From an uncultured archaeon (GTDB lineage Archaea > Thermoproteota > Nitrososphaeria > Nitrososphaerales > Gagatemarchaeaceae): 40,125 nucleotides of DNA. The notes beneath the pieces are model-generated. The model ran no database searches. It saw only the letters and a program-made list of their open reading frames with translations, and was not told the origin of the DNA. Below, in pieces: positions 18,958 to 36,964 of the stretch. Each line of letters opens with the position of its first letter. Position 1 is the first letter of the stretch. The stretch lies in the NCBI GenBank assembly GCA_963817525.1, contig CAWFOU010000012.1, positions 1-40,125 on the forward strand. Reading direction: 5' to 3'. The translations under genes and the position numbers were made by a program.

Positions 18958-19048
18958 CGGGCGGGCGCGGTTAGTCCGAATCTGCTGCATCGACTCCGCG
19001 GCCACAACGGAGATAAACCCGCCGGGAGGGTCCGGAATTCGGTTTTTT

Positions 19049-19969
19049 TTGGAGCACGGAGAGCTCCTCTGCCGAGGACCTCACCAAGATATACGACAGA
19101 TTCCACGGGAAGAAGGCGCTGGATCGCATCGACCTGCGCGTCCCCGCGCGCGGGATCTTCTCTCTCATAGGCGTGAACGGGGCCGGGAAGACGACCCTTG
19201 TCCGGATCCTGGCAACCCAGCTCGAGCCCACGTCCGGGTACGGCCCAGATCTTCGGCCTCGACGTCATCAAGGACGCTCGAAGAAGCTGCGCGAGAGGAT
19301 CGCCGCCATCCCACAGGAGGCGAGGGCGGTGCCATGGATGACGCCGATGCAGACGATCTCGTCCTACCTTCTCTGGCGGGGGATCGCCTACGCTGAGGCC
19401 AAGGCGGAGGGCCATCGAGGCGCTCGCGAAGATGGGACTGGAAAAGCAGGCGGACGCCTGAACCGCAAACTCTCGGGCGGCCAGCGCCGCAAGGTGATGG
19501 TCGCGACCGTGCTCGCGGCCGATGCAGAGATCACTTTCCTCGACGAGCCGACGACGGGCCTCGACCCGATATCCAGAAGGGACCTCTGGCAGTCGCTGCA
19601 GGAGATGGCGAAGAACCACTTCCTGATACTAACGACGCACTACCTTGAAGAGGCGGAGCGCTCGCCGACACAATCGGGATACTGGACAAGGGCGGCTGGT
19701 CGGCATGGGCACGTTGGAGTATCTCCGGGGCCTCGTGAAGTACCAATACAGCATAAGGATGCCCGCAGGCGCCACGGTCCTCCCGACGGTGCGAGGACGG
19801 GACGGTGACCACAGGGCAGGGACGGCCAGGTGCAGATACTCGACCGGGGAGGACGAGGCCTACAGACTCTCCGGGGAACTTCTCAAGAGCTGGCGCGAGG
19901 ATCTCGGTCAGCCGCATTCGCTGGACGACGTCTTCTTCCACCTCGTCGGGGAGGAAGGGAGCGAACTGA
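19049..19969 (+). CDS. ABC-2 type transporter ATP-binding subunit (frameshifted)
   Basis: Walker A GVNGAGKTT, signature LSGGQ, Walker B FLDEPTTGLDP, TTHYLEEAE. Confidence 0.9.
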
Positions 19970-20717
19970 TGCTCAGGCCCGCTTGGGTGAGGCAGATTGC
20001 GGCCTCCGTGCTCGTCAACGCAATCTACGCGATGAAGAACTATCCCGTCGTCCTCGTCAACACGGTGCTCGCCCCTGCTCGGCTTCCTGGTCATGGTGAA
20101 CTTCGTCAGCAAGGGAGGGCTGCTCGATCAGGCGATCGAGGGGGCGTTCATCATGAGCATGTTCTCGAGCGGGATGGGCCTCCAGAGCGACCTTTCCCAC
20201 CTCAAGAACGACTTCAAGCTCCAGGACATGGTCGTCAGCTCCCCGGCCTCGCCCGCCGCTTACGTCTTCGGGATGGCCATGTCTGAGATAGTCTACTCCA
20301 TCCCCGGCGCTCATCACGGTCACCATACTACTGTCGGTCTTCGTACACCCGGACGCGTGACAGGCGCTCGACCTGCTTGGGCGTGATACTGATGATGTTC
20401 ACCACATCCGTCACCCTGGGGTTCACGCTGTCGACCTTCTCCAGCGACATCGTGCAGAGCTTCGCCTTCTCCGGTCTGGTCTCGGCGATCTTCACCACGC
20501 TCTCGCCTGTCTACTATCCGATCACCTACATCCCCCTACCTTACAGGTATCTCGCGTACCTCTCTCCAACCACCTACGCAGCCGAGATAGCGCAGTCCTC
20601 GATCGGGACCCTGCAGCTCTCCTCGTCTCCATCGCCGTGGCATGGGGCGTCCTCGCCGCCGTGACCGTGGTCTTCGCGGTCATAGCCGTGACCAAGGCTA
20701 GGTGGCGCGAGGTCTGA
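19969..20717 (+). CDS. ABC-2 type transporter permease (frameshifted)
   Basis: TGATG-coupled to the ATPase; hydrophobic; LSPVYYPITYIP...LSPTTYAA motif; ends ...RWREV*. Confidence 0.82.
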
Positions 20718-21177
20718 AGGCCGAGGTCGAGTTCCAGCTAACTTCTCCGTCGCGCAGAGCCATTCTGAAGGCTACCCTTGAGAGCTCGTCCGCTTCCGTG
20801 TTCTGCTCCCTGGGTATCCACTCGAAGCTGAGCCGGCTGAACTTGCGCGCGACCTCCTTCGCCTCGAGATATTTTTCGGCGTACGAGCCCTCGGTCTTGT
20901 TGTTGTAGGCCTTCTTGCTCACCTTCCACTGGCCGAGCATCTGGTTGACCAGCATCTTCGAATCGGACTTCACGAGTATCTCCTCGTCGGCGAACTCCTC
21001 GACGGACTTCAGCGCCTCTATCAGTCCCGCGTACTCCGCGTGGTTGTTGCTGACGGGGTTCCCATCGAAACCGTGCGACCTCCTCAGCTCCTTCCCGTCC
21101 CGGTAGACTACGAACCCGTACGTGCCTATTCCGGGATTGCTTGGTTCCGCGAGCCCATCAGTGAATATCTCAATCAA
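20698..21177 (-). CDS. rnhA: Ribonuclease HI
   Basis: FTDG, SNNHAEY, KSDSKMLVNQ, WIPREQNTEADELS (D-E-D-D catalytic set). Confidence 0.93.
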   Translation of the reverse strand: MIEIFTDGLAEPSNPGIGTYGFVVYRDGKELRRSHGFDGNPVSNNHAEYAGLIEALKSVEEFADEEILVKSDSKMLVNQMLGQWKVSKKAYNNKTEGSYAEKYLEAKEVARKFSRLSFEWIPREQNTEADELSRVAFRMALRDGEVSWNSTSAFRPRAT

Positions 21178-21320
21178 ACTCGATCACGTGTTATCACACC
21201 AAGACGCGGTTCCTTCGCGTCGACCCGCTTGAAGCCTGAACGCAGACGGCCGACTATTAAGGAATGCGCGACGGACGACCTGAATCTATCCATAAATAAT
21301 CGGGGCTGCCCTCTTCGCCC

Positions 21321-23030
21321 GTGAAAGCCTGGAAGACTGTTGTGGATGCGCTCGTGAAGGAGAAGAGCGAGTTCGCTTTCGGCCTCGTTTCCGGTCCGTG
21401 GGAGTTCTGGGACTACCTCAACGACACGGACATCAGGCCCATCCTTGTCCATCATGAGCTGTCCAGCGTGCAGATGGCCATCGCCCACGCGCGCCTCACG
21501 GGGAAACCCGGCATAGCGATGAACAGCCCGGGGCCCGGAGTCGCGAACATGTTCGCGGGTTTCCTCGAGGCTCACACCGGCTGCATGCCAATGATAGCGC
21601 CCGTCCCCTCCTCCGAGATGCGCACCGAGGGCATGGCGCAGATGCAGGAGACAGACATGGTGAGCAGCTTCAGGCCGGTCTCGAAGTGGGCCTACCGCAT
21701 CACCAAGACCGAGAAGGTGGGCTGGGGCATGAGGAGGGCGTTCAGCCTCGCCACGAGCGGCAAGCCCGGACCGATCTTCCTAGAGATACCGATCGACGTC
21801 GGGAACGCAGAATACAAGGGGCCGCCGTACAAGCGCGTCGTCCCGGGCAAGTCCCGCCCCGACGAGAAGGACGTCAAGGAAGCCGCGAAGCTCATCATTA
21901 AGAGCGAGCGACCGGTGATCGTAGCCGGAGGGGGCGTCATGCTCTCGGGAGCCGGGGGCGCGCTCACGCAGCTGGCCGAGTCGCTCCTCATCCCCGTGCT
22001 GACCACCGCTTCCGGGAGAGGGTGCATCCCGGAGGACCATCCGCTGGCCTTCGGCATGGTAGGGCTGTACCGCACCGAGATCTCGAAGAAGGTCTACCAG
22101 GAGGCTGACCTCCTCATCACGATAGGGTCGAAGAACGAGGAGTTCGCGACGGCGGCGTGGAACTACTATCCGGAGAAGGCCAAGATGATTCAGATAGACG
22201 TCGACGCGTTCGAGATAGGCCGCAACTTCGTCCCCGACCTCTCGCTCGTGGGCGACGCCAGGCTCGCGTTGAAAGACTTGGTCTCTGTCCTGACGACGAT
22301 GATAAGGAAGGACCAGGTCAAGACCCAGCGCATCATCGACCTGAAGAAGGCGAAGCGCGAGTACGAGGAGATCGTCGACGAAGAGTGCAAGACCGACGCG
22401 GTCCCAATCAGGACAAAGAGGGTGGTGCACGAGATGAACGAGGTCTTCGGGAAGAACACGATACTCGCCAACGAGAACGGTTCCCAGGACCTCTGGGCGT
22501 ACTACTTCCCCTACTACAAGGTCCTCGACGCAGGGGGCTTCATGGGGATGGCCGAGCAGACCTGCTTCGGGATGGGAGTGGTCGGCTCGATCGCCGCGAA
22601 GCTGACCAGGCCCGACATGAAGGTCGTCTGCACGACCGGAGACACGGCGTTCCAGTTCTCGATGAAAGAGGTTCCCACGGCCGTGCAGTACAAGGCACCC
22701 GTGACGTGGGTTCTCCTCGACAACGCAGGACTCGGGTGGGAGGTCTATTACCAGAAGTATTGGCTGGACAGTGCCAAGGTTACCGCCACGAAGTTCACCG
22801 CCCAGCCGGACTTCGTCAAGTTCGCGGAGGCCAACCACATACACGGGGAGCGCGTGGAGAAGCCCGGCGACATCAAGGGCGCGCTGAAACGGGCCCTGAG
22901 GGCTAACAACAGCGGAGTCCCGGCGCTGGTCGACTTCGCCGTCGGGACGCTGGAGTTCCCTGAGGGCTTCCACGAGTTCCATCAGATAGCCTGGGGCAAG
23001 CCGGTTCACAAGGTCCGCCACACGAAATAA
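21321..23030 (+). CDS. Thiamine diphosphate-dependent enzyme, acetolactate synthase large-subunit superfamily
   Basis: HHE catalytic Glu, GPG, GKPGPIFLEIP, ThDP motif GDTAF...LLDN, PDFVKFAEA. TATA-like ATAAATAA at ~21292-21299. Confidence 0.9.
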   Translation: MKAWKTVVDALVKEKSEFAFGLVSGPWEFWDYLNDTDIRPILVHHELSSVQMAIAHARLTGKPGIAMNSPGPGVANMFAGFLEAHTGCMPMIAPVPSSEMRTEGMAQMQETDMVSSFRPVSKWAYRITKTEKVGWGMRRAFSLATSGKPGPIFLEIPIDVGNAEYKGPPYKRVVPGKSRPDEKDVKEAAKLIIKSERPVIVAGGGVMLSGAGGALTQLAESLLIPVLTTASGRGCIPEDHPLAFGMVGLYRTEISKKVYQEADLLITIGSKNEEFATAAWNYYPEKAKMIQIDVDAFEIGRNFVPDLSLVGDARLALKDLVSVLTTMIRKDQVKTQRIIDLKKAKREYEEIVDEECKTDAVPIRTKRVVHEMNEVFGKNTILANENGSQDLWAYYFPYYKVLDAGGFMGMAEQTCFGMGVVGSIAAKLTRPDMKVVCTTGDTAFQFSMKEVPTAVQYKAPVTWVLLDNAGLGWEVYYQKYWLDSAKVTATKFTAQPDFVKFAEANHIHGERVEKPGDIKGALKRALRANNSGVPALVDFAVGTLEFPEGFHEFHQIAWGKPVHKVRHTK

Positions 23031-23071
23031 ACGCAAGGCCGTCCATAGCGTCCGCTCTTCGAGTTTGACCG

Positions 23072-23106
23072 AAAAAGGGGGGTGGTTGCCCTTTGGCGGG
23101 ACAACC
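23072..23106 (-). terminator. Putative terminator of the TRAM gene (hairpin + U tract)
   Basis: Minus strand GGTTGTCC-cgccaaa-GGGCAACC stem, followed by CCCCCTTTTT, downstream of the stop. Confidence 0.5.
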
Positions 23107-23131
23107 CGTCACTCAGGACCGTAGACCGTGT

Positions 23132-23467
23132 CTACTGTTCTGCTGATTCTTCTGTGGACTCTTCCCCAGAACTCATGGAGTCTGAAGATGGAGCTGCCGC
23201 CGAACCGTCCACGAGCTGTCCGCTCGCGTACCTGTTCGACACTTGGGTGACCTTGATCCTCACCGTCTGGCCCTGCTTTGCACCGGCTACGAAGATGACG
23301 AAACCGTCAATCTTCGCGATACCGTCGCCGCGCCTGCTGACGTCGGAGATAGTAACATCGTACTCCTTTCCGACCTCAACTGGCTTGGGCTTGAAGGATC
23401 TAAAGCCGCCTCCGCTGCTGCTGCCGAATCCACCGCGGTTATACCCGCCACGTTGTCCGAAACTCAT
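23132..23467 (-). CDS. Single-TRAM-domain RNA chaperone (archaeal cold-shock-like)
   Basis: RGG/Gly-rich N-tail, KPVEVGKEYDVTISDVSRRGDGIAKIDGFVIFVAGAKQGQTVRIKV, acidic C-tail. Confidence 0.92.
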   Translation of the reverse strand: MSFGQRGGYNRGGFGSSSGGGFRSFKPKPVEVGKEYDVTISDVSRRGDGIAKIDGFVIFVAGAKQGQTVRIKVTQVSNRYASGQLVDGSAAAPSSDSMSSGEESTEESAEQ

Positions 23468-23745
23468 CCTTTTTCACTTCCTACCTAAGTTCCCGTCGGT
23501 GATCGGCATTCTTCGCGAGCGCTAATTAAAGCTTACCCATAATCATCTCATCACTTTCCTCACCTCTAGGGTACCAGGAAGAGACGACCCGCAACGCTCC
23601 CTATGTTGGAGATGTTTCTTTTTTGGACGACGGTCCAAATACTCTGGAACCTCCGGTGTTCCGTCGAGAAGGCCCGGATTCTCCCTTTGCGGAGATAGAA
23701 AGGTTGATTAGCTCCGCCCTCCGGTTTTGAGTCGAGTTTTGTGCC

Positions 23746-24270
23746 TTGGCAAGAGTAAGAGATATCATGACCACCGACGTCCCGCGGATTGACGGCTCGG
23801 CGAGCGTCTTGGATGCGGTGAAGCTGATGAACAAGAATAGGAGGAGCGGCGTGGTGGTCTTCGAGGATGGGAAGCCCACCGGGATGTTCACAGAGCGCTC
23901 CTTGCTGAGGAGGTTTGTGGCCGTGGACGAGAAGCCGTCCAATGTCCCTGTCAGGGACGTAATGGCCCCTCTCCTGAAGATAAGCGCTGACGCGCCCGTC
24001 AAGGATGCGGCGCACCTCATACTCGAAAACAGCTTCACCCGTGCCGGCGTCTTCGACGGCGACAAGCTCGTGGGTTGGCTCACGCTCACAGACATAGTGC
24101 GCGCCGGGTCCAAGAAGAACATAGTCGACTCCCTCACCCGGAACAAGACGACGTTCGCAGACGACGAGCTCGTCTGCCCTGAGTGTAGGTCAGCCCTCAT
24201 GAAGAAGATCGTGAACGCCAAGGGCGTGGTCCTACGCTGGGAGTGTCCCAACTGTGGACACCAAGAGTGA
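23746..24270 (+). CDS. CBS-pair protein with C-terminal zinc ribbon
   Basis: VRDIMTTD...GMFTERSLL...VRDVM...VGWLTLTDIV, then CPEC...WECPNCG. Confidence 0.88.
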   Translation: MARVRDIMTTDVPRIDGSASVLDAVKLMNKNRRSGVVVFEDGKPTGMFTERSLLRRFVAVDEKPSNVPVRDVMAPLLKISADAPVKDAAHLILENSFTRAGVFDGDKLVGWLTLTDIVRAGSKKNIVDSLTRNKTTFADDELVCPECRSALMKKIVNAKGVVLRWECPNCGHQE

Positions 24271-24303
24271 GCGAATAGCCTTCTCGCCTGCGGTGGCAAC
24301 CAG

Positions 24304-25347
24304 CTGAAGACCCTGCTCATCTGCAGGTCGACCCGGTTCGAGTCCAACATAGGCGCGGTACCCTACATCAGGCAGTTCTACGGCGCGCTCGGGAAGTTTG
24401 GGACCTCCGACATCCTCGAGACCGAGCGCTTCGACCCATCGCTCCTCAGGAGGGCTGCGAACAAGTATCTGGGCTCCAACTCGGACGCGGCTCAGTTCCG
24501 AGAGCTGAGGAAGCTCTCGTCCGACCTCGACCTAATCCTCATACTCCACGACTACGACTGGCTCAAGGCCGAGAGGCTCTCCTTCCTGAGGCGGAGGTTC
24601 CCTTCGGCCAAGGTCTGGTTCTACGACTACGAGGTCCCCCTGAACTTTCCCGAGAACGCGACCAACCCGGACTACGGCACAAGCCCGTTCCTCCGGAAGT
24701 CCAACCGCTGGGACATTGTCGACGGGCTGGTGATACCGTCCAAGGGTGCCCTGGTCAGGACGAAGGAACTGACGGGCGTCGCGAACATCGTGACACTCTA
24801 CTTCTCGGTTGACCCGGAGTTCTACAAGCCAGAGGAGGCAACGGGTCCCGTCAAGAGCTACGACCTCTGCTTCATGGGCAAGTCCAGGCACTACAGGGAG
24901 AAGGAGATCGAATACCTGCTGGAGAAGCCCGTCGAGCGCAAGGGCTACGCTTCTCTGGACCTCTCAGAAGGGGCGTTCAACATCACGCAGTTCATCAAGA
25001 ACGCGGGGATGAGCCGAGTGAACCTTAGCATAACGAGGCGGCCTTTCGCTGACTGCTATGCTTCGAGCGTGTCGCGCCCGTTCGAACTCGCAGCGATGGG
25101 CTGCTGCATCGTCTCCAACCCCTGTTTGGGGATGGAAGAGTGGTTCGAGAAGGGCAAGGAGATAGACGTGGCGTCGAGCGCCGAGGAGGCGGTCGCGCTC
25201 TACGACGCGTTGCTCTCTGACCCTGAGAGGAGGATGAGGCTCGGGATTAACGCACGGAACCGCGTCCTCGCCCAGCACGACGTCAGGCTCCGAGTCAAGG
25301 CCATGCTAGCGGAGATGAGCTTCGAGGCCAAGGCGCGAGATGAGTAG
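24304..25347 (+). CDS. GT-B glycosyltransferase (CgeB/Glyco_trans_1_2-like), CTG start
   Basis: The frame of ORF 24730 is open back to CTG 24304 (MKTLLICRST...). Motifs SVDPEFY, DLCFMG, SRVNLSI, RPFELAAMGCCIVS, ARNRVLAQH. Confidence 0.8.
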   Translation: MKTLLICRSTRFESNIGAVPYIRQFYGALGKFGTSDILETERFDPSLLRRAANKYLGSNSDAAQFRELRKLSSDLDLILILHDYDWLKAERLSFLRRRFPSAKVWFYDYEVPLNFPENATNPDYGTSPFLRKSNRWDIVDGLVIPSKGALVRTKELTGVANIVTLYFSVDPEFYKPEEATGPVKSYDLCFMGKSRHYREKEIEYLLEKPVERKGYASLDLSEGAFNITQFIKNAGMSRVNLSITRRPFADCYASSVSRPFELAAMGCCIVSNPCLGMEEWFEKGKEIDVASSAEEAVALYDALLSDPERRMRLGINARNRVLAQHDVRLRVKAMLAEMSFEAKARDE

Positions 25348-25361
25348 GTAACGAAGACTCC

Positions 25362-25397
25362 ATATTTTCAATATAGAACATATGAGAAATATTATGT
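25362..25397 (+). promoter_or_regulatory. Four ATAT motifs at 9-bp period upstream of the polyphosphate operon
   Basis: ATATTTTCA ATATAGAAC ATATGAGAA ATATTATGT; ATAT starts at 25362, 25371, 25380 and 25389. Confidence 0.55.
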
Positions 25398-25438
25398 AAC
25401 GGCAGGAACCACGGCCCGCAAGGGAATGACCACCTCTC

Positions 25439-25933
25439 ATGGAACTCATCATACTTAGACATGGGGAGGCGGGCAAGCGCGCGCCCGTCGGGAGCAACGA
25501 CGCCGAGCGCACCCTGACCGTCGCGGGCAAGGACGAAGTCAAGGAAGTCGCAGAGTCGATCGAAGAGCTCGGGTTGAAGCTGGACATCATCGCGACGAGC
25601 CCCCTGAAGAGGGCGCTCGAGACCGCGCAGATCGCTGCGAAGGTGCTCAAGAGGGAGAAGGCCCTCGAGACCTGGGACGAGCTCAAGCCAGAGCAGGATC
25701 CCAAGGAGCTCTACCGCCGACTCTCCAAGATGAAGCAGGATTCTTCGATCCTGCTCGTGGGCCACGAACCATACCTCAGCTCCATGATTTCGGAGCTGAT
25801 AGGGGCGAAGCGCGGCTCGCGGATTTCGCTCAAGAAGGCCGGTCTAGCCAAGGTCGAGATAGAGTCGCTGATCCCACCGTCGGGGGAGTTGCGCTGGCTG
25901 CTCACCCCTCGCCTGCTGAAGAAGGTGTCCTGA
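25439..25933 (+). CDS. sixA: Phosphohistidine phosphatase SixA
   Basis: LIILRHGEA, R.LT..G, TSPLKRALETA, LLVGHEP, LKKAG, LRWLLTP. Confidence 0.92.
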   Translation: MELIILRHGEAGKRAPVGSNDAERTLTVAGKDEVKEVAESIEELGLKLDIIATSPLKRALETAQIAAKVLKREKALETWDELKPEQDPKELYRRLSKMKQDSSILLVGHEPYLSSMISELIGAKRGSRISLKKAGLAKVEIESLIPPSGELRWLLTPRLLKKVS

Positions 25934-25934
25934 G

Positions 25935-27455
25935 CTGCGCGCCTCGGTCATCGACCTAGGATACAACTCGCTCAAGATGGTCAGCTACGACATCAAGAGC
26001 GACAACTCCTTCCGCGCGTTCGACCAGAGGGGGGAGCTGACCCGCATCGGCGAAGGGCTGCACCTCACCGGGTTCCTCGGGCAGGAGCCGATCGAGAGGA
26101 CGCTCCGCGCCCTGAAGGCCCTCAACGAGGCGAACCGGCTCCAGGGCATCAATCAGGTCCTCGCGATAGCGACGTCGCCGATCAGGGAGGCCGGCAACGG
26201 AGCGGAGTTCTTGCGACGCGTCCAGTCGGAGACGGGCATGGTCTTCCGGGTGCTCACGGGGAGAGAAGAGGCGCTCTTCTCATACATCGGTGCGGCCCGC
26301 TCGACGCTCCTTCCCGACGTCCTCTTCTTCGACCTGGGCGGCGGGTCCCTTGAACTGACCTACGCGCGGAACTTCAGGGTCAAGAAGATAATGTCGCTCC
26401 CCGTCGGCGCGCTCAGACTGACAGAGCTCTACGGCGGTGGGAGAGAGCGGTTCGACAAGGAAGAGTATGACGCGCTTCGGCGCAGGATATTGGAGCTCCT
26501 GCCGTCCCGCCAGGACCTGGGGATAACCAGGGAGACCGTCCTCATGGGGGTAGGCGGGACAGTCCGGGCCCTCGCCAAATACGACCAGCGGCTGAGGGAC
26601 TACCCGCTCAACAAACTCCACAACTACGTGATACGCGCCAAGTCGATCTCCGCGATAAACAAGACGCTCAGGAAGATGAACGCCGACAAGATCGCAAAGA
26701 TCGAGGCGATGGGCAAAGACCGCGCGGAGAGCGTCACCGCGGGTTCGCTCGCAGTATCGCTCCTCATGAGACACCTCGGCTTCAACGAGCTCATCGTCAG
26801 CACGCACGGGCTTAGGGACGGCGTCCTCGCCGAGTTCCTGCGCGACCCCTCGGCCTACGAGAAGCACGCCCTCGACGAGGTACGGACGAGGGACGCCCTC
26901 ACCGACTGGTTCGGCAGGAGGTCGGGGACGGAGGAGTTCACGAAGGAGCTCGCCATCCGCAACATCATAACAAGGGAAGAAGGACTCATACTCGACGAAG
27001 CTATCGAAGGATTCCTCGACATCTACCTCTCGACGAGGGCGGAGAGCATGTTCTACTCGATCCTGAACGAGGACAGCTTCCTCGACCACCGGGACCAGGT
27101 CGAGCTCGCGCTCGCGTTCGTGAGGGCGAAGGCGCCAAAGACATCCAACTGGTTCTACGAGAGGTACAAGTCCTTCCTGAAGGACAAGACCAAGGAGTCG
27201 GTCGACAAGCTGGCCGCCTTCATCCAGTTCGCGGAGATACTCGAGCTGACCCAGTCCAAGGCGACCGTGCGCCTGAAGGGCGACCGTCTCAGGTTCTACA
27301 TCAAGTCCTCGAAGAGGGACTTTCCGATGCTGCTGCTGGAGCAGGCCGCCGAGGAGCTCGAAGAGGCGACATCGCTCAGAGTCAAGATATTCACCGAGAG
27401 GACGAGTTCGCCGCCGCAGGCGTCTCAGGTAATCAAGAAGGAGATAGAACGATGA
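25935..27455 (+). CDS. ppx: Exopolyphosphatase Ppx/GppA family, CTG start
   Basis: In-frame CTG 25935 restores MRASVIDLGYNSLKM. Also ATSPIREAGNG, GREEA, DLGGGSLE, GVGGTVRAL, GLRDG. Confidence 0.93.
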   Translation: MRASVIDLGYNSLKMVSYDIKSDNSFRAFDQRGELTRIGEGLHLTGFLGQEPIERTLRALKALNEANRLQGINQVLAIATSPIREAGNGAEFLRRVQSETGMVFRVLTGREEALFSYIGAARSTLLPDVLFFDLGGGSLELTYARNFRVKKIMSLPVGALRLTELYGGGRERFDKEEYDALRRRILELLPSRQDLGITRETVLMGVGGTVRALAKYDQRLRDYPLNKLHNYVIRAKSISAINKTLRKMNADKIAKIEAMGKDRAESVTAGSLAVSLLMRHLGFNELIVSTHGLRDGVLAEFLRDPSAYEKHALDEVRTRDALTDWFGRRSGTEEFTKELAIRNIITREEGLILDEAIEGFLDIYLSTRAESMFYSILNEDSFLDHRDQVELALAFVRAKAPKTSNWFYERYKSFLKDKTKESVDKLAAFIQFAEILELTQSKATVRLKGDRLRFYIKSSKRDFPMLLLEQAAEELEEATSLRVKIFTERTSSPPQASQVIKKEIER

Positions 27456-28153
27456 GCACGCGTAAAACCGTATCAAATCAAAGGCAGGGAAGGCTGATAG
27501 TCGTCGAGGGGATCGACGGCTCAGGCAAGTCCACACAGATGCACCTGCTGGACAAGTGGCTTCGCCACCTGGGGCTCCTGGTGTTCTTCACCGAGTGGAA
27601 CTCTTCGGAGGTGGTGAAGGAGATCACCTCCAAGGGGAAGAAGAAAGCGCTCCTCACCCCGACCACATTCAGCCTCCTGCACGCGACCGACTTCTGCGAC
27701 AGGTACGAGAGGAACGTCCTGCCGCTCCTGCGTGCGGGATACTTCGTCCTCGCGGACAGGTACGTCTACACCGCCTATGCGAGGGATGCCGTAAGGGGCT
27801 GCAACCCCCGCTGGGTCCGGAAGATCTACAGCTTCTCGGCCAAGCCAGACGCCTGTTTCTATTACCACGTCCCGGTCGACATCGCCGTCAAGAGGATACT
27901 CACGGGCCGCCCCAAGCTGAAGTACTACGAAGCGGGGATGGACCTCAACCTGAGCAACGACGAATACGAGAGCTATCGCATCTTCCAGAGCCGCATCATC
28001 GAGGAGTACAAGTCGATGGCCCCTGCGGAAGGCTTCCGGGTCATGGACGGGACCCTCGACATCGAGCTGCAACAGAGGCTGATGAGGGAGCAGGTTCTGC
28101 CGCTGCTTCCCCCCGAGGTTATCGCCGTGGCGAAGAAGGAGCTGATTGCGTGA
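27452..28153 (+). CDS. Thymidylate-kinase-like P-loop kinase 1, probable polyphosphate kinase (family 3-type) subunit
   Basis: EGIDGSGKST, ADRY, YYEAGMDLNLS; TEWN replaces the usual TMK TREP. ATGA overlap with ppx. Confidence 0.8.
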   Translation: MSTRKTVSNQRQGRLIVVEGIDGSGKSTQMHLLDKWLRHLGLLVFFTEWNSSEVVKEITSKGKKKALLTPTTFSLLHATDFCDRYERNVLPLLRAGYFVLADRYVYTAYARDAVRGCNPRWVRKIYSFSAKPDACFYYHVPVDIAVKRILTGRPKLKYYEAGMDLNLSNDEYESYRIFQSRIIEEYKSMAPAEGFRVMDGTLDIELQQRLMREQVLPLLPPEVIAVAKKELIA

Positions 28154-28887
28154 TGACCTCCAAAGAAGTCACGTCGGGAGAGAGGGACCTCGAGTTCTAC
28201 GGGGACGGGATAGCCTACCTCAAGGACAGGAAGATCAAGGGCCGCCTCGTCGTCATCGAGGGGCCTGACGGGTCCGGACGCTCCACGCAGGTCGACCTCA
28301 TCACCTCCAAGCTGGAGTCCGACGGTCACGCCGTCGCGACGACTGGGCTCAAGCGCTCCGAACTGATAGGCAAGGGCATACTCGAAGCGAAACAGAAGCT
28401 CCCGCTGGGCAAGAAGACCCTGACCCTCTTCTACGCTGCGGATTTCGCCGACCAGCTCGAACACAAGATAATCCCGGCGCTCGAGGCGGGTTACATCGTC
28501 CTCGCCGACAGGTACATCTACACCCTCATCGCCCGAAGCACGGTGAGGGGGATCGGGAGGCGCTGGTCCCACGACCTCTTCGGATTCACGATCAAGCCCG
28601 ACCTTGTCTTCTATCTCGACGTCGAGCCCGAGGAGCTCTTCCACAGGGTCTTCCAGAAGTACGCGACGCTCGACTATTACGAGTCGGGTGCCGACCTTGG
28701 CCTCTCGGACGATCTCTACGACTCATTCGTGATGTATCAGAGGATGATGGCGAAGGAGTTCAAGGTGATGGAGGAGAGATACGGCCTCGTTCCCATAAAC
28801 GCGAACCGTCCCATCGCCGAGGTCAACGCGGACCTCCAGAAGCGGATAGATACCTACCTCGCAAGGATAAAGCGGTCTCCGGCTTAA
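28153..28887 (+). CDS. Thymidylate-kinase-like P-loop kinase 2 (Walker A K>R), probable second polyphosphate kinase subunit
   Basis: True start ATG 28153 (TGATG overlap). EGPDGSGRST, ADRY, KPDLVFYLDV, YYESGADLGLS. Confidence 0.8.
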   Translation: MTSKEVTSGERDLEFYGDGIAYLKDRKIKGRLVVIEGPDGSGRSTQVDLITSKLESDGHAVATTGLKRSELIGKGILEAKQKLPLGKKTLTLFYAADFADQLEHKIIPALEAGYIVLADRYIYTLIARSTVRGIGRRWSHDLFGFTIKPDLVFYLDVEPEELFHRVFQKYATLDYYESGADLGLSDDLYDSFVMYQRMMAKEFKVMEERYGLVPINANRPIAEVNADLQKRIDTYLARIKRSPA

Positions 28888-28914
28888 ATCCCTCCTCGCG
28901 CGACGGGTGTCGGA

Positions 28915-29760
28915 TTGCCAGAAGGCTCGTCAAAGCCGGCTAGCGTCTCGCCCGCTCTCTTCGCGGAGGAGCATCGTCGTACAAACGAGAGGGTGGCGCG
29001 AGCGCTGCGAGATTACCTTGGAAACCCGGATGAAAAGAACACCCGGCTGCTTCGCGCCTCGGTCAGGAGGCTCACCACGATGCTCAGGGTCATCCCAAAG
29101 CGGTCGCGGAAGAAGCAGATGAAGCAGGCCCTTGACAGCGGGAGGAAGCTGCTCAGGGTCACATCGAAGGTGCGGGACGTTGACGTCATCGAGGGCAAGC
29201 TCGCGATGATTCCGCGCGACCACACGGTCGAGCTTCTCCTGAACAACCTGAGCGAGGAGCGCGAGGAGTACGTCGGAGACAGCATGAAGGCGGCGTGGCG
29301 GCTCTTCGAGCAGAGGAAGCAGAAGACAGACCGCAAGGACTTCCGGGGCGCGCAGAGGTGGGTGAGGAGCACGCTCATCGAGCTCGACGGGGAGGTCTCG
29401 AAAGCGCTTCCGACAGTCGTCAAGAACGAGGGGAAGATTGAGGAGCTTCACTCTCTGAGGAAGCAAGCCAAGACCTTCAGGTACGCGCTCGAACTTCTCC
29501 CCACGACGCGCGGTTCGGTGCGGACCATCGAGGTGCTGAGATCGTGGCAGGACGTCCTCGGCGAGATAAGAGACAGCGACACCGTCATCGAGTACCTTGG
29601 CAGGGCCAGACAGTACAGGACCGTGAGGGAGGCACTCGTGGCGGAAAGAGCGCTCAGGCACAAGCGATACCGCTCGTTCGTCAGGTCCTGCTCGAGGGAC
29701 TTGAAGACCGGACCCTCACTGCTCAAGCTCGCCGGGTTCAGGCGCGAAGCCTCCGGCTAA
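28915..29760 (+). CDS. CHAD domain (polyphosphate-binding) protein
   Basis: Basic helical protein with LRASVRRL, VRDVDV, LHSLRKQAKTFRY and QDVLGEIRDSD. Confidence 0.88.
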   Translation: MPEGSSKPASVSPALFAEEHRRTNERVARALRDYLGNPDEKNTRLLRASVRRLTTMLRVIPKRSRKKQMKQALDSGRKLLRVTSKVRDVDVIEGKLAMIPRDHTVELLLNNLSEEREEYVGDSMKAAWRLFEQRKQKTDRKDFRGAQRWVRSTLIELDGEVSKALPTVVKNEGKIEELHSLRKQAKTFRYALELLPTTRGSVRTIEVLRSWQDVLGEIRDSDTVIEYLGRARQYRTVREALVAERALRHKRYRSFVRSCSRDLKTGPSLLKLAGFRREASG

Positions 29761-29793
29761 CCGTTAAATCCATCTCTTCCACGGGGTGGCCCG

Positions 29794-29991
29794 ATGCCCA
29801 AAGAGATCAGGAGCAAGGAAGAGTTCCAGAAGCTCCTGCCGTCCGCGACGGAGATCCGCGTGGTGAAGGGCGAGGGCGAGGCTGCCAAGATAAAGCTCCG
29901 CACCAAGGACCAGCTCTACACGTATGTGACCACCGAGGGAGAGGTAGAGGGCCTCACCAAGGGCACCAAGACCCCCGTCGTAGAGATTTAG
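29794..29991 (+). CDS. rpl38e: 50S ribosomal protein eL38 (L38e)
   Basis: MPKEIRSKEEF...KIKLRTKDQLYTYV matches the eL38 pattern MPxxI...KxKxRxxxxLYT. Confidence 0.8.
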   Translation: MPKEIRSKEEFQKLLPSATEIRVVKGEGEAAKIKLRTKDQLYTYVTTEGEVEGLTKGTKTPVVEI

Positions 29992-30861
29992 AGGAAGATC
30001 AGGGCGAGCAGGGTCAGCAGGCCCAGCGCCATCGGTATCGGCAGGCCGGGCAGCATCCTCGAGCGAGACAGTAGATACAGCGTTATCACGACACCCACGT
30101 CAATCGAGGCCATCGTCGCTAGGGCGAAGGGTACGTTGTACTGGAGAGTGACCGACGCCCCCTGGAGGAGTGCGATCGCGGGCAGCATCGAGTAGAATAT
30201 CGTGTCCCCCGTCCCAAGGGTGTACTCGCCCAGCCTGGACGTTACCGCTGTGAGGGCCTGCGCCGGAGCCATCGATACGAGCTGCTTCAGCGGGCCCCTG
30301 AACACGGCGTAGATGTCATAGACCGAGAAGACCGCTGCTAGCAGGAGGGCCGTCAGTATCGGGATCGTCGACGCGAATATGCTGCCTACCTCAGCGGAGA
30401 GCAGTCCCGTCATAAGGGGACCCAGGACGTAGAGCTTGGGCACCCTCGTGATGAACGCGAACGCGACCGTGACCCCCACCGACAGCAATATTCCAAGAGC
30501 GAGCGCGGCGTTCGCGTCGAGGAAGTACGCAGCGACGGTGCTGGTCGTGAGCAGCGTCATCAGGAAGAGCGCGACGCTGGTGAAGGTGAAGATGAGCCAC
30601 GTGAAGATGTTGGCGCGCTTCCTCTTGATTAGCCAGATTGCGATAAGGGTTGTCGTGAAGGCGCCTGCGACCAGGACGAGCGCGCTCGTCGCGGAACCCG
30701 CAGCAGACGTGCCACCGGGCGCGTACGTGAATCCGGTGGAGGCCGTTATTGGCGCGATGAAATAAGTGAAGGCCAGGGCGGCGACCTGGATCACCAGGAC
30801 GAACCCGATCGTGAGCGCCGCGCTCTTCGCGGGAAGTGTCTAGGGGCGCTTCCTCCGCCAT
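29988..30861 (-). CDS. Presenilin/SPP-like GxGD intramembrane aspartyl protease (frameshift near 5' end)
   Basis: YDIYAVF, LGTGD, PGLP (PAL-like) and about 9 TM helices. Likely ATG at 30861. Confidence 0.88.
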
Positions 30862-30866
30862 GAGCG

Positions 30867-32130
30867 TCAGACCTCGTAGACTTCGCCGACTCTCGGGGCG
30901 AAAGCCTCTGACGCCCAGCTCTGTGTGCAGCTCATCGGCGAGGCTCACACAGCTCTCCTCCTCACCATGGACCGTCATGAACTTGGGTTTGCCCTTTATG
31001 CCCTTGAGGTCCGAGAGCAGCGTGCTCTTCCCGCTGTGAGACGAGAAGTCGAACTTCTTTACCTCCGCCTTGACCTTGGTCGGCCTGCCGTTGAGAAGCG
31101 TCAGTCCCCTGTCCAGGAGCGTCCTCCCTGCCGTGCCGGGGACCTGGAAGCTAACAAGAGCGATCGAGTTCTTCTCCTTCTGCGACAGCCGCTCGTTGTA
31201 GAAGACCGAAGCTCCCCCTACCAGCATCCCGGCGGGAGCGATTATCACGCCCGGCTTCTGGATGAACTTGCGCCTCTGCGACCAGCCGGAGATAAGCTCG
31301 GTGCTCTCCAGCGTCCGCCGGAAGAGCGCGGGGTCCCTCAGATATTCCTGGTGCCGCATCAGGACCTCGTTGACCTTGAGTGCCATACCGTCCATCCCTA
31401 CCTGGTGCTTGAAGCCGTTCTTGTGTAGCGTCATGGCGAGCTCCTGAGCCCTGCCTACGGAGAAAGCAGGTGCGAGCAATACCCCGCCCCTCTCGACCAC
31501 CGCGTTGGCATGACTCAACGAACGCCTTCTCGACCTCGGCTCTGTGCGGGTGGTCCGCGGTCGCATAGGTGCTCTCCGTGATGACCATGTCCGCCTCGCC
31601 GAGGTCTTTCCATGACGGGTTGAGCAACTCCGTCTCTGCCCCGTTGATGTCGCCCGTGTAGAGGAGCCTCTTCGAGCCGGCCTCGACAGAGATGATGCAC
31701 GAGCCCGGGATGTGCCCGGCGTCGTAGAAGTTATCGTTCATGTTCCCTATCGAGAAGGTCTGCCTGTACCCGTGCAGGACCGTGCTCTTGTCCATGGCGA
31801 GCAGGTCGAGGTATTCGAACGGCAGGTACGGCCCCGAGATCTTGATGAAATCGTTGATGAGCAGGTTCGAGAGCTCCTGGGTCACGGGGGTGGAGTGCAT
31901 CTTGACCTTGTCCCCTCCGATGAAGAAGACCGGCGTCGGCGCCCGAGTGGTCCAGGTGCGCGTGGCTCAGAACCAGTCCCTGGATGCTCTTCGGCTGCAC
32001 GTGGACCGGGAAGCCCGGCTCCTTCGTCGTCATCGCGCCGTAGTCGAGCAGGATGTTGGTGTCTGCCGTGGGAGACCATGAAGCCCGACCTTCCAACTTG
32101 GCGGGCTGCTCCCAGAATTTTAACTTGCAT
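30867..32130 (-). CDS. Beta-CASP metallo-beta-lactamase ribonuclease, aCPSF-like without KH domains (frameshifted)
   Basis: MQVKILGAARQVGRS, LLDYG, SHAHLDHSG, AGHIPG, YTGD, ESTYA, PAFSVGRAQE, FSSH, VHGE. Confidence 0.92.
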
Positions 32131-32281
32131 AATATAGCTGAATTTTCGACCTCGGCGGCCATTCTTTAAGGGTTTGGTGGGGCTTGGCAAGTCGTCGAAG
32201 GGGTTATGACCGGGGGAATTTATGAGGCTTCGAATAAAACCCTCAATAATTATTATATACGAATGGTCTCCGGTCATTCAG

Positions 32282-33875
32282 ATGAGCGGCACAACCGAAG
32301 AAGGTATTCGCCCGAGAGGCGACGGGTCTGGTAAGGGCACTGGGCGCGAAGGACATCTTCGTCTGGACAATCGTCTTCTTCCCGTTCTTCTCCTCGTGGG
32401 TCGCGAACTTCTGGTACACGCCGAGCCTCGTTGATAACGTGAACTATTACATCGCTCTCGGACTGTGGACCGTACTCTTCTGTGCCATCCCGCCGTTCAT
32501 GTGGTGGATGATGACGACGATCGTCCCCAGGGCGGGAGGAGACTACGTCTTCAGCTCGAGGGGTCTCCATCCGTCGCTTGGTTTTACCGCGAGCCTGCTG
32601 GTCACATTCTCAGTGGGACTCACGGCCATAGGCTCGGCACCGCTGTTCGCGCTCGCCCTAGGCTCGGCACAGCTCGTGACCGCGGGTCAGGTCTCCGGGA
32701 ACGCCGCCATAACGAATCTCGGCAACTTCCTCAACCCATTCGTTACCGGCTCGGCCGAGGACACGGTATGGGTCATTGGGATAATCATCCTGGCCGTTGG
32801 GGCCATAATCGCGGCCGTGGGGACGCGGTTCTTCAACAAGATAATGTGGATAATCTTCGCAGTCGGTCTCCTGGGCCTGGTGATCGAGCTTCCGATTCTT
32901 CTTACCACCACCAAGGCCGCCTTCGACGCCGGGTACAACTCCTACAACCCACGGACAACGTAACGGCCGTCTATGCAGCCGCCGCCGCCACCGCTCATTA
33001 CTTACCCGGATGGACCTGGGCCGCGTCGGTGGCAGCCGTCCCCCTCCTCTTCATCAACTTCGGTCCCTACTACCTGATGTACAACGTAGCGGGCGAGGTG
33101 AAGAACGCCAGGAAGAGTTTCCTCTGGGGCGCATGGGGCGCAATACTGCTGTCCGCGGCGTTCGCGTTCCTGCTCACCTTCCTGCTCGACCGGGCGGTGG
33201 GTCTCGACTTTATCGAGGCCTACACGGTCCAGAACTACTACTATGCACCCGTGGTCAGCGCCTTCCTCGCCTACGTCGTCCCTAATCTCGGCATCAACGT
33301 GATCCTGGCCATCGTGCTGCTTGTCTCCAACATCGGATTCGGATACCTCGGTTTCATGTTCCTTAGCAGGCCGATGCTCGCGTGGTCCTTCGACAGGATC
33401 CTTCCCTCCAAACTGTCCAGCGTCAGCGCCCGTTTCGGCTCTCCGACGGTCGCCATCGCGGCAACGCTGGTGCTGGCCTCGGCGGGCTGGACGCTGGAAC
33501 TCTTTGCGTCGAGCTTCGCAGGAGTGATACTGGACAGCCTGCTGATCAAGTTCGTCGGCTGGGCCGTAATCAGCGCCGCCGCCATCGTCTTCCCCTTCAC
33601 CCAGAAGAAGCTCTTCCAGGACTCGAGCGTCAATTACAAGATAGCTGGAGTCCCCGTCCTGAGCCTGGCGGGACTGGCATCGTTCCTGGTCTTCATCTAC
33701 TTCGTGGTCAACTCGGTGACCACGACGGTCTTCTACACCCCGACGTGGGACCAGGGGGCGTTCCTCATCGCCCTCTTCTTCGGGCGCGATAATCTACTAC
33801 TTCATCGCCGACGCATATCGCAGACGGCAGGGAGTCGACCTGTCGCTTGCGTTCAAGGAACTGCCTCCCGAGTAG
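32282..33875 (+). CDS. APC family amino acid permease (frameshifted)
   Basis: VFAREATGLVR, PRAGGDYVF, AGEVKN, SRPMLAWSFDRILP, terminal FKELPPE*. ATTATATA upstream. Confidence 0.88.
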
Positions 33876-33887
33876 GGAGGACCAGTC

Positions 33888-34712
33888 TCACGCCAGCGAG
33901 CGGTTGAGGAAGTCCAGAGTCAGACGCCACGCCAGCGCAGCCTGCGCAGGGCGGTGCATGTACGGGTTGGTATCGTTGAAGAACGCGTGCGGGGCGCCGG
34001 GATAGAGCTTCATCTCGAAATCCCTCTTGTACTTCACCATGGCCGCGACCAGCTGGTCCAGGCTCGCGTTGAGCCCCGTGTCCTCGACCCCATAGTTCCC
34101 AAGGACCGGGCAGTTGATCTTCTCGACCTGCTCGATCGGGTCGGGGTTCTGGCCGTAGAATACGACGCACGCCTGCGTCTGTCCGGTGCAGGCAAGCCTA
34201 AGCGACATGGTCGCCGCCGAAGCAGAAGCCGATGCTCCCTACCCTGTTGGGGCTGACCCCTGGCTGCTCCTTGAGGTGAGTGAGGGCCTCGCCGACCTCC
34301 GTCACGAACCTCGGGAAGGGCAGCTTGCCCCCGAAGACCGTCCCGAAGAACGTCCCCACGACCGCCCTCTTGTCCTCGGGGAGCTTCGCCAGCTCCTGCT
34401 GGACGAATGTCTGGTCGCGCATCTTCCCGGGCGGGAGGGTGAACATGAACTCCGTCACGGCCGTGACGTTCGCGATCGAGAAGAGCGGCGCAAGAGCGGG
34501 GTCGGAGCCCATGAGGTCGGGCGCGAGCACCGCGTATCCCTCCCTAGCGAAATCTGTCCGCCACGTCCTTGATATGCGGGACCAGCCCCCATATCTCGTG
34601 GACCATCACCAACCCGGGCACGCGTTCCTGCGCCCGCGGGCTTAACGAAGTACGCGTTGATATCGTGGGCAGGGCCCCTGAACTTGACCATAGACGACTC
34701 TATCTGGCTCAT
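33888..34712 (-). CDS. Dienelactone hydrolase family protein (frameshifted)
   Basis: HEIWG, LAPDL, nucleophile GFCFGG, FYG, YPGAPHAFFND. Confidence 0.88.
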
Positions 34713-34798
34713 GCCCTGCAGGCCGACGGGGAGGGTTATTTTGCTTGCGGAACGGACAGATGACTTTAAGGACAGGGGCCGGAACCGGCAGCGTCCAG

Positions 34799-35509
34799 TT
34801 GTCGTCCATCCGAGTCTTGCCCGAGGGGAAGAAACTCAAGGCGAGCACCCTCATAGCCGGCTTCCACGGCATCGGCGCCACCGGCTACTGGTCCATCAAG
34901 TTCCTCATCGAGGAGCTAAAGGCGAGACGCGCCTTCTACATCGACTCTGAGTTCGCGCCGGCCGTATCCTCGACCCTGGGCGGGGCCATCTCGACCCCGT
35001 ACGAGATATTCGTCTGCGGCGAGCTCGCCTTCCTAAAGGCCGAGGTCCCTCCGCTCAGGGAGAACGAGAACAGGTTCTTCCGGGAACTGGGCCAGTGGAT
35101 AGTTGAGTCCGGCGTCAACGAGGTGGCGCTCATAGGGGGTCTCGACGAGTCGTTGCGGGTCGATGACTCCACATACCGCCTGGTGCTCACCGACGCGATG
35201 GTGAAGGCGAAGCAGTTCGAGGGCCAACCCGTGCTCGAGGAGGGCAAGATGATAGTCGGGCCAGTCGCGGTCCTGCTCAACACGCTACAGATGCACAACT
35301 GCGCCGCATTTGCGGTGCTCGCCTATTCCAACACGGAAAGGGTCGACCCGCGCGCCGCGGCGATCGCCGTGGAGTTCCTTGCGGACAGATACGCATTCAA
35401 GGTCTCGACCGCCCCGCTGATAAAAGGCGCCGAGGAGCTCGAGCGCGAGCTCATAGGTCTCGCCCAGAAGGAGAAGGACCGCGGCTCGTCGAGCGCGATC
35501 TATTCCTGA
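34799..35509 (+). CDS. PAC2 family proteasome assembly chaperone
   Basis: LIAGFHGIGATG, ALIGGL, IVGPVAVLL, VDPRAAA, terminal IYS. TTTAAG at ~34765 favours TTG 34799 over the ORF-track start at 34745. Confidence 0.85.
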   Translation: MSSIRVLPEGKKLKASTLIAGFHGIGATGYWSIKFLIEELKARRAFYIDSEFAPAVSSTLGGAISTPYEIFVCGELAFLKAEVPPLRENENRFFRELGQWIVESGVNEVALIGGLDESLRVDDSTYRLVLTDAMVKAKQFEGQPVLEEGKMIVGPVAVLLNTLQMHNCAAFAVLAYSNTERVDPRAAAIAVEFLADRYAFKVSTAPLIKGAEELERELIGLAQKEKDRGSSSAIYS

Positions 35510-36964
35510 GTCCGCCTCTTGTGACCGTCCCCGCGGACGCTGACCTTGTGTAGCCCATCCCGCGGAGGCGCCGCGACAGCGTCGCGGATTTCTTTCCTCC
35601 CCGGGATCATTTCAGTGACGGTCTGGCTGAAGGGGTAGACCATCTCGAGTTCGGCGGGGTAGGGCCCCAGCAGCGGATGCAGTTTGTAGACGTCCACCGC
35701 CTCGCCGCGCGGTTCCTTCAGCACCTTCTCGTAGGCAGCGTTGTTCTGAAGTGGCTTCTCGCCGTTGGAACCGATGAGGATCGCCGTCCTCCCCCTCCTC
35801 TTCATTATTCCCCCCATGTGCGCCCTGACGATCTCGAGCTCCGGCCTGCGTTCGTCGGTCCCGCTCCTCACAAGAAGGCCCCTGTCCTTCACGAACCGCG
35901 TGCCCGAGGCCAGCCACTCGCTGTTCTTGGCCAACTCCTCGAACGCGGAGCCCGCCCGCGGGTGCACCGAGGCCCTCTCCTCGACGAGGTCCCACAACCT
36001 GCCCTCGGAGATCGCCTCCCGGCACCGCAGCACGTCCTGGCGCAGGATGTACAGATTGTGCAGAGCGAGTCGCTTCACGCGCTCGTCCCTCTCCATGAGG
36101 ACGAGGTCCTCCCTGCTCGTCCCGATGCAGACCGGACAGCTGCACGGGAGATACGACATCTGCTCGAGGACCAGGGTCCCCCTCTCCGTCATGTATCTCC
36201 CCTGCTTGGCGAACAGGATGTAGCTAGCGGAGTCGAAGGTGTCACAACCGAGGGCTATCGAGAGTGGCAGGGTCAGCGGGTGCCCCGCGCCGAAAAGGTG
36301 CAGGGGTACGGAGTACGGCATCGCCTTCTTCGCGGCGACTATCATCCTGACCAGCTCTGCGAAGCGGTAGTTGTCCATCAGCTCGACGGGGCTGCCGAGC
36401 GCGAGGATCTCGAAGCCCGCCGCGAGCAGCCCCTTGGCCGACTTCCTCACGAGGTCGTCGAAGAGGCCTCCTTGTATCGGGCCTACCCAGGTCGTCCTGC
36501 CTTTCCCGAGCTTCGCGATGGTCTCCTGCGCCCTCCAGACTGACGCGCATCGTCTCCTTCGCGTACTCCCTGGACAGCGAGTATCCCGTGGGCTGGTCGA
36601 GTGTGACGGCGAGGTCTGACCCTATCGCTGACTGGAACTCTCCTATCACCATCGGTGTGATGTCCATCTTTCCGTACCGGAGGACCTGGTAGCCTCCCGA
36701 GTCGGTCATCACGATGCCGTCGAAGCCGAGCATCCCGTGGAGTCCCTTCTCGATCGCTTCCTCCTTTCTCCTCCTGTACGCGATGAGCGAGTTGGTCATG
36801 ACCGCGCCGAAACCCATCTCTCCGTACTTCGAGAGCGGGATGTCGTGGACCACCGGGTGGACGACCGGGACGAGACAGGGAGTCTCTATGCTCTTGCTCC
36901 CCACCCGGAGGACCCCTATCCTGCCCATCAGGTCCGTGTCCCGTACCTCGAATGAGATGGGCAT
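35500..36964 (-). CDS. tgtA: Archaeosine tRNA-guanine(15) transglycosylase (frameshifted)
   Basis: FEVRDTDLMGRIG, IETP, MTDSGGYQ, LDQPTG, LHLFGAGHP, GCDTFDSASY, CSCPVC...HNL. No PUA domain evident. Confidence 0.94.

Follow-up and report, generated by a model that had tools for sequence, protein, structure and literature searches.

Gene layout of the locus

The stretch of DNA analysed here (the window) comprises 40,125 nucleotides of contig CAWFOU010000012.1, from an uncultured archaeon of the Nitrososphaeria (family Gagatemarchaeaceae; assembly GCA_963817525.1). The subject is a run of five + strand frames at 25439-29760, evident in the frame listing and in the sequence: sixA, ppx, two adjacent genes of thymidylate kinase type (TMK1 and TMK2) and a gene for a CHAD-domain protein (Table 1). 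The original prediction was that the tandem TMK genes fill the slot of a polyphosphate kinase gene (ppk) and specify a heteromeric kinase for polyphosphate (polyP). TMK1 and TMK2 are also called gene 3 and gene 4 below, and c and r denote the catalytic and partner subunits of the polyphosphate kinase family, PPK3, with which they are compared.

The sixA stop codon (TGA, 25931-25933) is followed by a single base before codon 25935, from which ppx is read. There is an ATGA overlap at the ppx/TMK1 junction (27452-27455) and a TGATG overlap at the TMK1/TMK2 junction (28151-28155), and a 27-base gap lies between TMK2 and the TTG of the CHAD gene. The two overlaps suggest coupled translation of ppx, c and r. 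This co-oriented arrangement, with the four junctions as first described, is confirmed by frames, letters and profiles. The further description of all five genes as intact holds in that the frames are open, but ppx has no canonical start codon (its frame is read from CTG 25935). The AT-rich box gagaaatattatgtaa upstream of sixA, set in a window of about 60% G+C, is, to judge by its letters, a possible archaeal TATA/BRE (B recognition element) promoter element for the operon.

Table 1. Features of the polyP locus and its upstream border
Feature	Coordinates	Strand	Basis or remark
Glycosyltransferase-like frame, 205 aa	24730-25347		profile match to C-terminal part of family
AT-rich box gagaaatattatgtaa	25385-25400	+	read by eye; about 40-55 bases 5′ of the sixA ATG
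sixA, phosphohistidine phosphatase, 164 aa	25439-25933	+	TIGR00249, PF00300
ppx, Ppx/GppA exopolyphosphatase, 506 aa from CTG 25935	25935-27455	+	PF02541, TIGR03706
TMK1 (gene 3), assigned as cPPK3, 233 aa	27452-28153	+	STK_15430 match, c clade, motifs
TMK2 (gene 4), assigned as rPPK3-like partner, 244 aa	28153-28887	+	STK_15430 match, r clade, motifs
N-terminal extension of gene 4 product, residues 1-30	28153-28240	+	FYGDGI
CHAD-domain protein, 281 aa, TTG start	28915-29760	+	PF05235

In the profile scan the sixA product scores 103 bits with TIGR00249 (cut-off 74.5) and also matches PF00300, and it has the SixA motifs RHGEA at residues 7-11 and GHEP near residue 108. The CHAD protein scores 61.4 bits with PF05235 (cut-off 25.6), and its gene is the fifth, as in Sulfolobaceae loci.

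The PPK3 system of Sulfolobus

The original prediction invoked a two-subunit 'family 3' PPK encoded beside ppx in Sulfolobus acidocaldarius. That system is the subject of PMC12995831 (JBC 2026), of which main-text passages and those of its preprint are drawn on here. As described there, two genes annotated for thymidylate kinases, saci_2019 and saci_2020, encode the subunits of a heteromeric PPK3: Saci_2019 is the catalytic one (cPPK3) and Saci_2020 is rPPK3, inactive alone yet activating. The enzyme, SaPPK3, is an α2β2 assembly that works in both directions but strongly favours making ATP from ADP and polyP. The S. acidocaldarius operon consists of sixA (saci_2017), ppx (saci_2018), c, r and a CHAD gene; PPX, SixA and CHAD are given as the typical PPK3 neighbourhood, and the family is reported from Nitrososphaeraceae too (PMC12995831). 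The same passages call STK_15430 a cPPK3 homologue. They, and the preprint, describe the arginine of the DRX motif as replaced or absent in rPPK3s and use this to explain their inactivity, and positively charged cleft residues are stated to be conserved in c and not in r (PMC12995831, citing its Fig. S16). An analogy is drawn with PPK2 of class II, where an inactive paralogous unit of a P-loop polyP-dependent nucleotide kinase is used for oligomerisation. A change of the Walker-A lysine in r is not mentioned in the main-text passages of the paper or preprint, and Fig. S16 might show it. The system is already published, in a preprint of 2024 and the paper of 2026, with the neighbourhood and the Nitrososphaeraceae named, and the idea is not new.

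The window has the same five-gene content and order as the SaPPK3 locus, with a pair of dTMP kinase fold and c upstream of r. Its c keeps the Walker-A lysine and the DRX arginine, and its r has the Walker-A lysine replaced by arginine and the arginine of DRYE by glutamine, as in the Sulfolobaceae r rows examined. However, the window r keeps the DRX arginine (DRY), which is DGY in 10/10 Sulfolobaceae r rows; it has an N-terminal extension with an FYG.G motif that is absent from most of those rows; and the genus to which the window belongs usually carries PPK2 as well.

The two kinase genes

The best solved-structure match of the gene 3 product is STK_15430 of Sulfurisphaera tokodaii (202 bits, E 6.2e-59; PDB 2plr/5h70), a protein deposited as a 'probable thymidylate kinase' (PDB 2plr, 4nzy, 4rzx, 5h70). 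The two have in common the blocks TEWNSS, HATDF.DRYER and DRY.YTAYARD.VRG, and differ in that the window protein has longer termini and that STK_15430 comes from a thermoacidophile. In the alignment the window c is 45-48% identical to six Sulfolobaceae c rows. It has a Walker A of GIDGSGKST (K26), R84 in DRYER and a DRX motif, DRY, at 102-104 (R103). K26 and R103 are invariant in the c alignment and in all 105 c-type rows of a wider census, which took in 75 rows from Nitrososphaeria (among them the window and a further copy, on contig C1, from the same bin), 10 from Sulfolobaceae, 7 from bacteria and 13 from Melainabacteria or Clostridium.

The canonical dTMP kinase of the bin (G000:C7:636242-636781) is of the same fold family, and the P-loop and DRX-type motifs align. 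In place of the TEWNSS and ATDF.DRYE of c, canonical proteins have SFPDY and ANRWE blocks, and they are without the insert around KLKYYEAGMD found in c. The resemblance to PPK2 (PF03976) is one of functional logic according to PMC12995831, down to the two-domain class II form with its inactive N-terminal domain. Neither window c nor window r matches PF03976 at E≤0.01, and the true PPK2 of the bin is a separate gene on contig C7 (250 bits). On its sequence, gene 3 is assigned as cPPK3.

The gene 4 product also has STK_15430 as its best solved-structure match (115.6 bits). Its Walker A reads GPDGSGRST, with R43 in the lysine position (G42 and R43 are invariant in the r alignment), and ADQLE stands in place of the DRYE of c. 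The DRX motif is present as ADRYIY (R120), so the arginine loss described for rPPK3 is not seen in it. On the Walker-A change, which Sulfolobaceae r subunits share, gene 4 is assigned as the r partner of cPPK3. No c-r heteromer is among the solved-structure matches of the two window proteins.

A tree of 69 rows (IQ-TREE quick search, LG+C20) places the pair. It was built from 29 c rows, 27 r rows, 2 Melainabacteria/Clostridium second copies and 11 canonical TMKs from the bin and genomes of the same order, and omits L012, L013, L014, L015, L030, L057, L073, L091, L102, L105, L117, L123 and L126. The branch that sets the 11 canonical TMKs apart is 3.3 long and has support of 100 in the Shimodaira-Hasegawa-like approximate likelihood ratio test (SH-aLRT). 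The 29 c rows, the window and 8 rows from Sulfolobaceae/Sulfolobales among them, all fall in a single clade (SH-aLRT 99), and the window r falls within a Nitrososphaeria r clade (SH-aLRT 98). An earlier 73-row tree made before the extra Sulfolobaceae rows were added agrees. The comparison against true TMKs that the original prediction proposed thus puts the window c with Sulfolobaceae c subunits, and neither window protein with canonical TMKs.

Occurrence and gene order in relatives

Relatives of the c gene were found in at least 587 stretches of species-representative genomes, and the neighbourhoods of the best 80 of these loci, 73 archaeal and 7 bacterial, were surveyed. Almost all of the archaeal loci are titled as Nitrososphaerota or Thaumarchaeota groups. 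An r gene directly follows c in 78/80 loci (71/73 archaeal, 7/7 bacterial). Contig ends cut many of the archaeal loci; of the 73, 54 have ppx, 46 sixA and 36 CHAD. All five genes stand in the full order in 14/73, and a divergent layout, with ppx-sixA on one side and c-r on the other, is seen in another 14/73. One locus titled Thermoplasmata archaeon (L014) has a full Nitrososphaeria-type operon on a 7-kb contig, with a c 78% identical to that of the window; since it nests inside Nitrososphaeria clades, it is probably a mis-binned contig.

Sulfolobaceae loci were reached by a degenerate motif scan (8 stretches, none titled S. tokodaii), which led to L089, a Sulfolobaceae-like operon, and from it to nine more, titled Acidianus hospitalis, two Metallosphaera, Stygiolobus, Sulfolobus sp., a Sulfolobaceae archaeon, two Sulfolobales archaea and a Thermoprotei archaeon. 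In 8/9 of these Sulfolobaceae/Sulfolobales loci the order is sixA-ppx-c-r-CHAD-like, and the ninth, L119, is c-r-CHAD-like in the portion covered. The fifth gene in two of the Sulfolobaceae loci scores just below the PF05235 cut-off of 25.6 (24.3 and 23.8 bits).

Predicted association of c and r

Alignments of 29 c rows and 27 r rows served to model the c-r complex. The model has a score of 0.73, and the best of its 3 controls one of 0.00. A mark of 0.73 is reached by 58/80 solved complexes and by 2/110 mismatched pairs, counts that hold only roughly here because author-made alignments were used. The model runs agree in at least 96% of contacts, with a partner pLDDT (predicted local distance difference test) of at least 86. 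The predicted interface involves residues 53-87 and 116-128 of c; on the r side it takes in 71-104, 138-145 and, from the N-terminal extension, 17-22 (FYGDGI). The model lends support to binding of c to r but does not demonstrate it.

Interpretation

The operon is very probably the orthologue of the characterised Sulfolobus polyphosphate operon, with genes 3 and 4 encoding the catalytic and partner subunits of PPK3. Homology, clade placement, motifs and gene order are those of a PPK3 pair, and the complex model passes its controls; the proposal of a heteromeric polyP kinase in the ppk slot is supported. From this we infer that the enzyme is active, which direction it prefers and that r regulates it. 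In such a scheme cPPK3, the gene 3 product, would move the terminal phosphate between polyP and ADP/ATP and, by analogy with SaPPK3, would mainly make ATP from polyP when the ATP/ADP ratio is low. The gene 4 product, paralogous and probably catalytically impaired, would bind it and raise its activity via oligomerisation. Ppx would hydrolyse polyP, the CHAD protein, whose domain is polyphosphate-granule-associated, would sit on polyP, and SixA would be a co-expressed phosphatase in the operon.

Several considerations weigh against this assignment. The anchors are other Sulfolobaceae proteins and the PDB protein rather than Saci_2019 and Saci_2020 themselves, and PPK3 activity is known only for the S. 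acidocaldarius enzyme. The window r is only 28-39% identical to Sulfolobaceae r, and the r rows form a poorly resolved, open grade in both quick trees, so that a single origin of r is neither excluded nor shown. Its retention of the DRX arginine makes a purely regulatory status less secure. TMKs form homodimers and 2plr is a solved structure, and so the pass of the complex model may reflect that likeness. In addition, ppx is without a canonical start codon, and the genus usually has PPK2, so PPK3 need not be its main polyP enzyme.

The locus confirms that mesophilic soil Nitrososphaeria have, with its gene order unchanged, an operon whose characterisation has come from a thermoacidophile alone. 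It also bears on annotation: databases still label both kinase genes 'dTMP kinase', and c and r can be separated by a Walker A of GK(S/T) versus GR(S/T) and by DRYE versus DQ.E. The locus raises no question beyond those posed in PMC12995831. What remains new is the retained DRX arginine, the Walker-A Lys to Arg signature of r, the co-occurrence with PPK2, the ppx CTG and the co-binning described below, some or all of which may already be in the supplements of that paper.

Active-site residues of r and the status of gene 4

The census of r covered 89 rows: 72 from Nitrososphaeria, 7 from bacteria and 10 from Sulfolobaceae. Every Nitrososphaeria, Sulfolobaceae and bacterial c row keeps the Walker-A lysine, the DRYE arginine and the DRX arginine. 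In r the Walker-A lysine is arginine in 88/89 rows (72/72 Nitrososphaeria, 7/7 bacteria, 9/10 Sulfolobaceae) and the DRYE arginine is glutamine in 84/89 (71/72, 3/7 and 10/10, in the same order). The DRX arginine is kept in 72/72 Nitrososphaeria and 7/7 bacterial r rows and is glycine in 10/10 Sulfolobaceae. In this sample, loss of the DRX arginine in r holds for Sulfolobaceae only and is not a general mark of r, which limits generalisation from Sulfolobus; the Walker-A Lys to Arg change is the wider mark of r subunits. Among Nitrososphaeria rows the median number of lysines plus arginines is 4 in the lid and 4 in the preceding helix for c, and 2 and 2 for r. This count is a proxy; it agrees with the statement on the cleft in PMC12995831 and does not test the residues named there.

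These residues bear on whether both subunits might be active kinases, the gene 4 product having enough of its active site left (DRX arginine, lid) to catalyse phosphotransfer itself, perhaps with another nucleotide or acceptor, so that the heteromer has two activities. The DRX arginine retained throughout Nitrososphaeria and bacterial r rows, and in 0/10 of those from Sulfolobaceae, favours this, as do the Melainabacteria/Clostridium pairs, in which 13/13 extracted copies, both genes included, keep the Walker-A lysine and DRY. It is nevertheless improbable given the near-universal substitutions at the Walker-A and DRYE positions of Nitrososphaeria r rows and their halved count of basic residues in the lid and the preceding helix alike. 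Change of the Walker-A lysine to arginine in P-loop kinases usually abolishes catalysis, which counts against it further. A related reading of the partner subunit is somewhat less doubtful, though still tentative: r of Nitrososphaeria and bacteria may bind a nucleotide or the polyP end as an allosteric sensor of energy charge, or keep weak activity, since the DRX arginine is kept and only the Walker-A Lys to Arg and DRYE Arg to Gln changes have occurred. A division of labour between PPK3 and PPK2 would belong to the same tentative picture.

The N-terminal extension of r carries an FYG.G(I/L)P.L motif in Nitrososphaeria and bacteria, which reads FYGDGI in the window. In the pairs of Clostridium sp. 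and Gastranaerophilales metagenome-assembled genomes (L090-L096) both copies keep the Walker-A lysine and DRY, and the second copy branches beside the c clade, not with r; from sequence, these pairs may consist of two active subunits. Three proteins of 454-471 aa (P0122, P0171 and P0199) are of double length, with two separate stretches of each matching the window r. P0122 combines two DRY motifs with a P-loop of c type (GKST) in the first half, and in P0171 and P0199 the second half holds a P-loop of r type (GRST). All three appear to be fused c-r forms.

The start of ppx

The ppx product scores 157 bits with PF02541 and 237 bits with TIGR03706, below the 307 cut-off of the latter, and read from 25935 it matches TIGR03706 positions 2-299. 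Its frame is open from 25920, following an in-frame stop at 25917-25919. Between that stop and ATG 25977, the first canonical start, the frame contains no ATG, GTG or TTG. The exopolyphosphatase profile begins to match at the residues encoded from 25938 (RASVIDLGYNSLK), which are its conserved N-terminal strand and loop, and in relatives the matching residues directly follow an ATG, GTG or TTG start. Use of ATG 25977 would remove the conserved N-terminal VIDLGYNS loop.

One reading of this is that the module is partly decayed: with its start lost, Ppx would be poorly made or truncated at the N-terminus, and the operon shifted towards polyP retention. CTG stands at 25935 where five relatives (L010, L011, L016, L025 and L030) have ATG, GTG or TTG, and no other letter appears at the site in contigs that cover it from three soil runs of a single study, although these runs may be the source sample, so that the reproduction of the CTG is not independent. 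Against decay, apart from its start the frame stays open and conserved along 506 codons, and with one base between it and the sixA stop, ribosomes could re-initiate at a near-cognate codon. The closest relative, L009, shares the CTG but also has an upstream in-frame GTG. On balance such decay is unlikely.

The least credible alternative, that both kinase genes encode ordinary dTMP kinases merely adjoining ppx, has in its favour that PF02223 matches both products (TMK1 67.7 bits, TMK2 83.6 bits), that TMK2 exceeds the TIGR00041 cut-off for dTMP kinase (89.5 versus 83.25 bits) and that relatives, as foreseen originally, carry the name 'dTMP kinase' in public sources, but it founders on the tree split from the canonical TMKs of the order, on the score of TMK1 below that same cut-off (78.8 bits), on the separate, better-scoring canonical tmk on contig C7 of the bin (102.9 bits) and in G007, a genome of the genus that is collinear with the window (108 bits), and on the report in the passages of PMC12995831 that the real dTMP kinase of S. 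acidocaldarius is saci_0893, with dTMP kinase activity found for Saci_0893 and none for Saci_2019/2020.

Other polyphosphate kinases and the genome of origin

The original prediction described the operon as having neither PPK1 nor PPK2. This is so for the operon and the window contig, on which neither has a match, and for PPK1 in the bin: its profiles PF02503 and PF13090 were not found there (the bin being 95% complete and 8.75% contaminated), and PF13090 is above cut-off in 0/41 genomes searched. It does not extend to PPK2, of which the main bin has a 296-codon open frame on contig C7. PPK2 is also present in 17/22 other genomes of the genus, including the single-contig G007, and in 1/16 genomes from other families of the order. 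In this genus, then, bearing PPK3 does not mean lacking PPK2, and PPK3 is not the sole candidate polyP kinase in the lineage.

In four genomes of the order the PPK2 matches are split over frames or contain stops (G009:C2:122817-123460, G020:C82:6924-7560, G021:C1:361936-362642 and G038:C1:1770500-1771177), with one TAG and one TAA in G038 and a TGA in G021. This may point to decay of PPK2 in some lineages that bear PPK3, or to errors of assembly.

Contig C1 of the bin carries a second complete sixA-ppx-c-r-CHAD operon (G000:C1:77956-82399, from sixA at 77956-78453 through CHAD at 81584-82399), about 75% identical in DNA to that of the window. In the C1 operon ppx starts at an ATG inside sixA, with a 40-base overlap, and the N-termini of c and r are longer. 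A bin with two paralogous operons was considered and set aside. Blocks of C1 and C7 that are 65-82% identical cover 39.5% of the window contig, whereas five 40-kb pieces taken at random from C1 are covered to 4-8%; apart from the 148-kb C8 (11.6%), the bin's other small contigs resemble the window contig in this coverage. In G007 a single 17-kb stretch runs collinear with positions 18000-36000 of the window (72-84% identity), and in G009 the counterparts are scattered. In the trees the window pair groups with L009-L013 and the C1 pair with L047. By a reading of the hit tables, two pairs occur in 0/22 other genomes of the genus and one adjacent pair in 15/22. Contamination of the bin is put at 8.75% by CheckM. 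The simplest reading of these comparisons is that the window contig was binned together with the main species but derives from another species of its genus, and statements at the level of the genome consequently rest on the main bin and G007 as proxies.

Flanking genes

Upstream of the operon lie genes for a thiamine pyrophosphate (TPP) enzyme, a TRAM protein and a CBS protein and a piece of a glycosyltransferase gene, and downstream a convergent gene for a presenilin-like protease. The genes on both flanks are unrelated, and the module is therefore the five genes only. The glycosyltransferase-like frame nearest to sixA matches only positions 47-144 of the 144 of its profile, and may be a truncated gene or one with a mis-called start.

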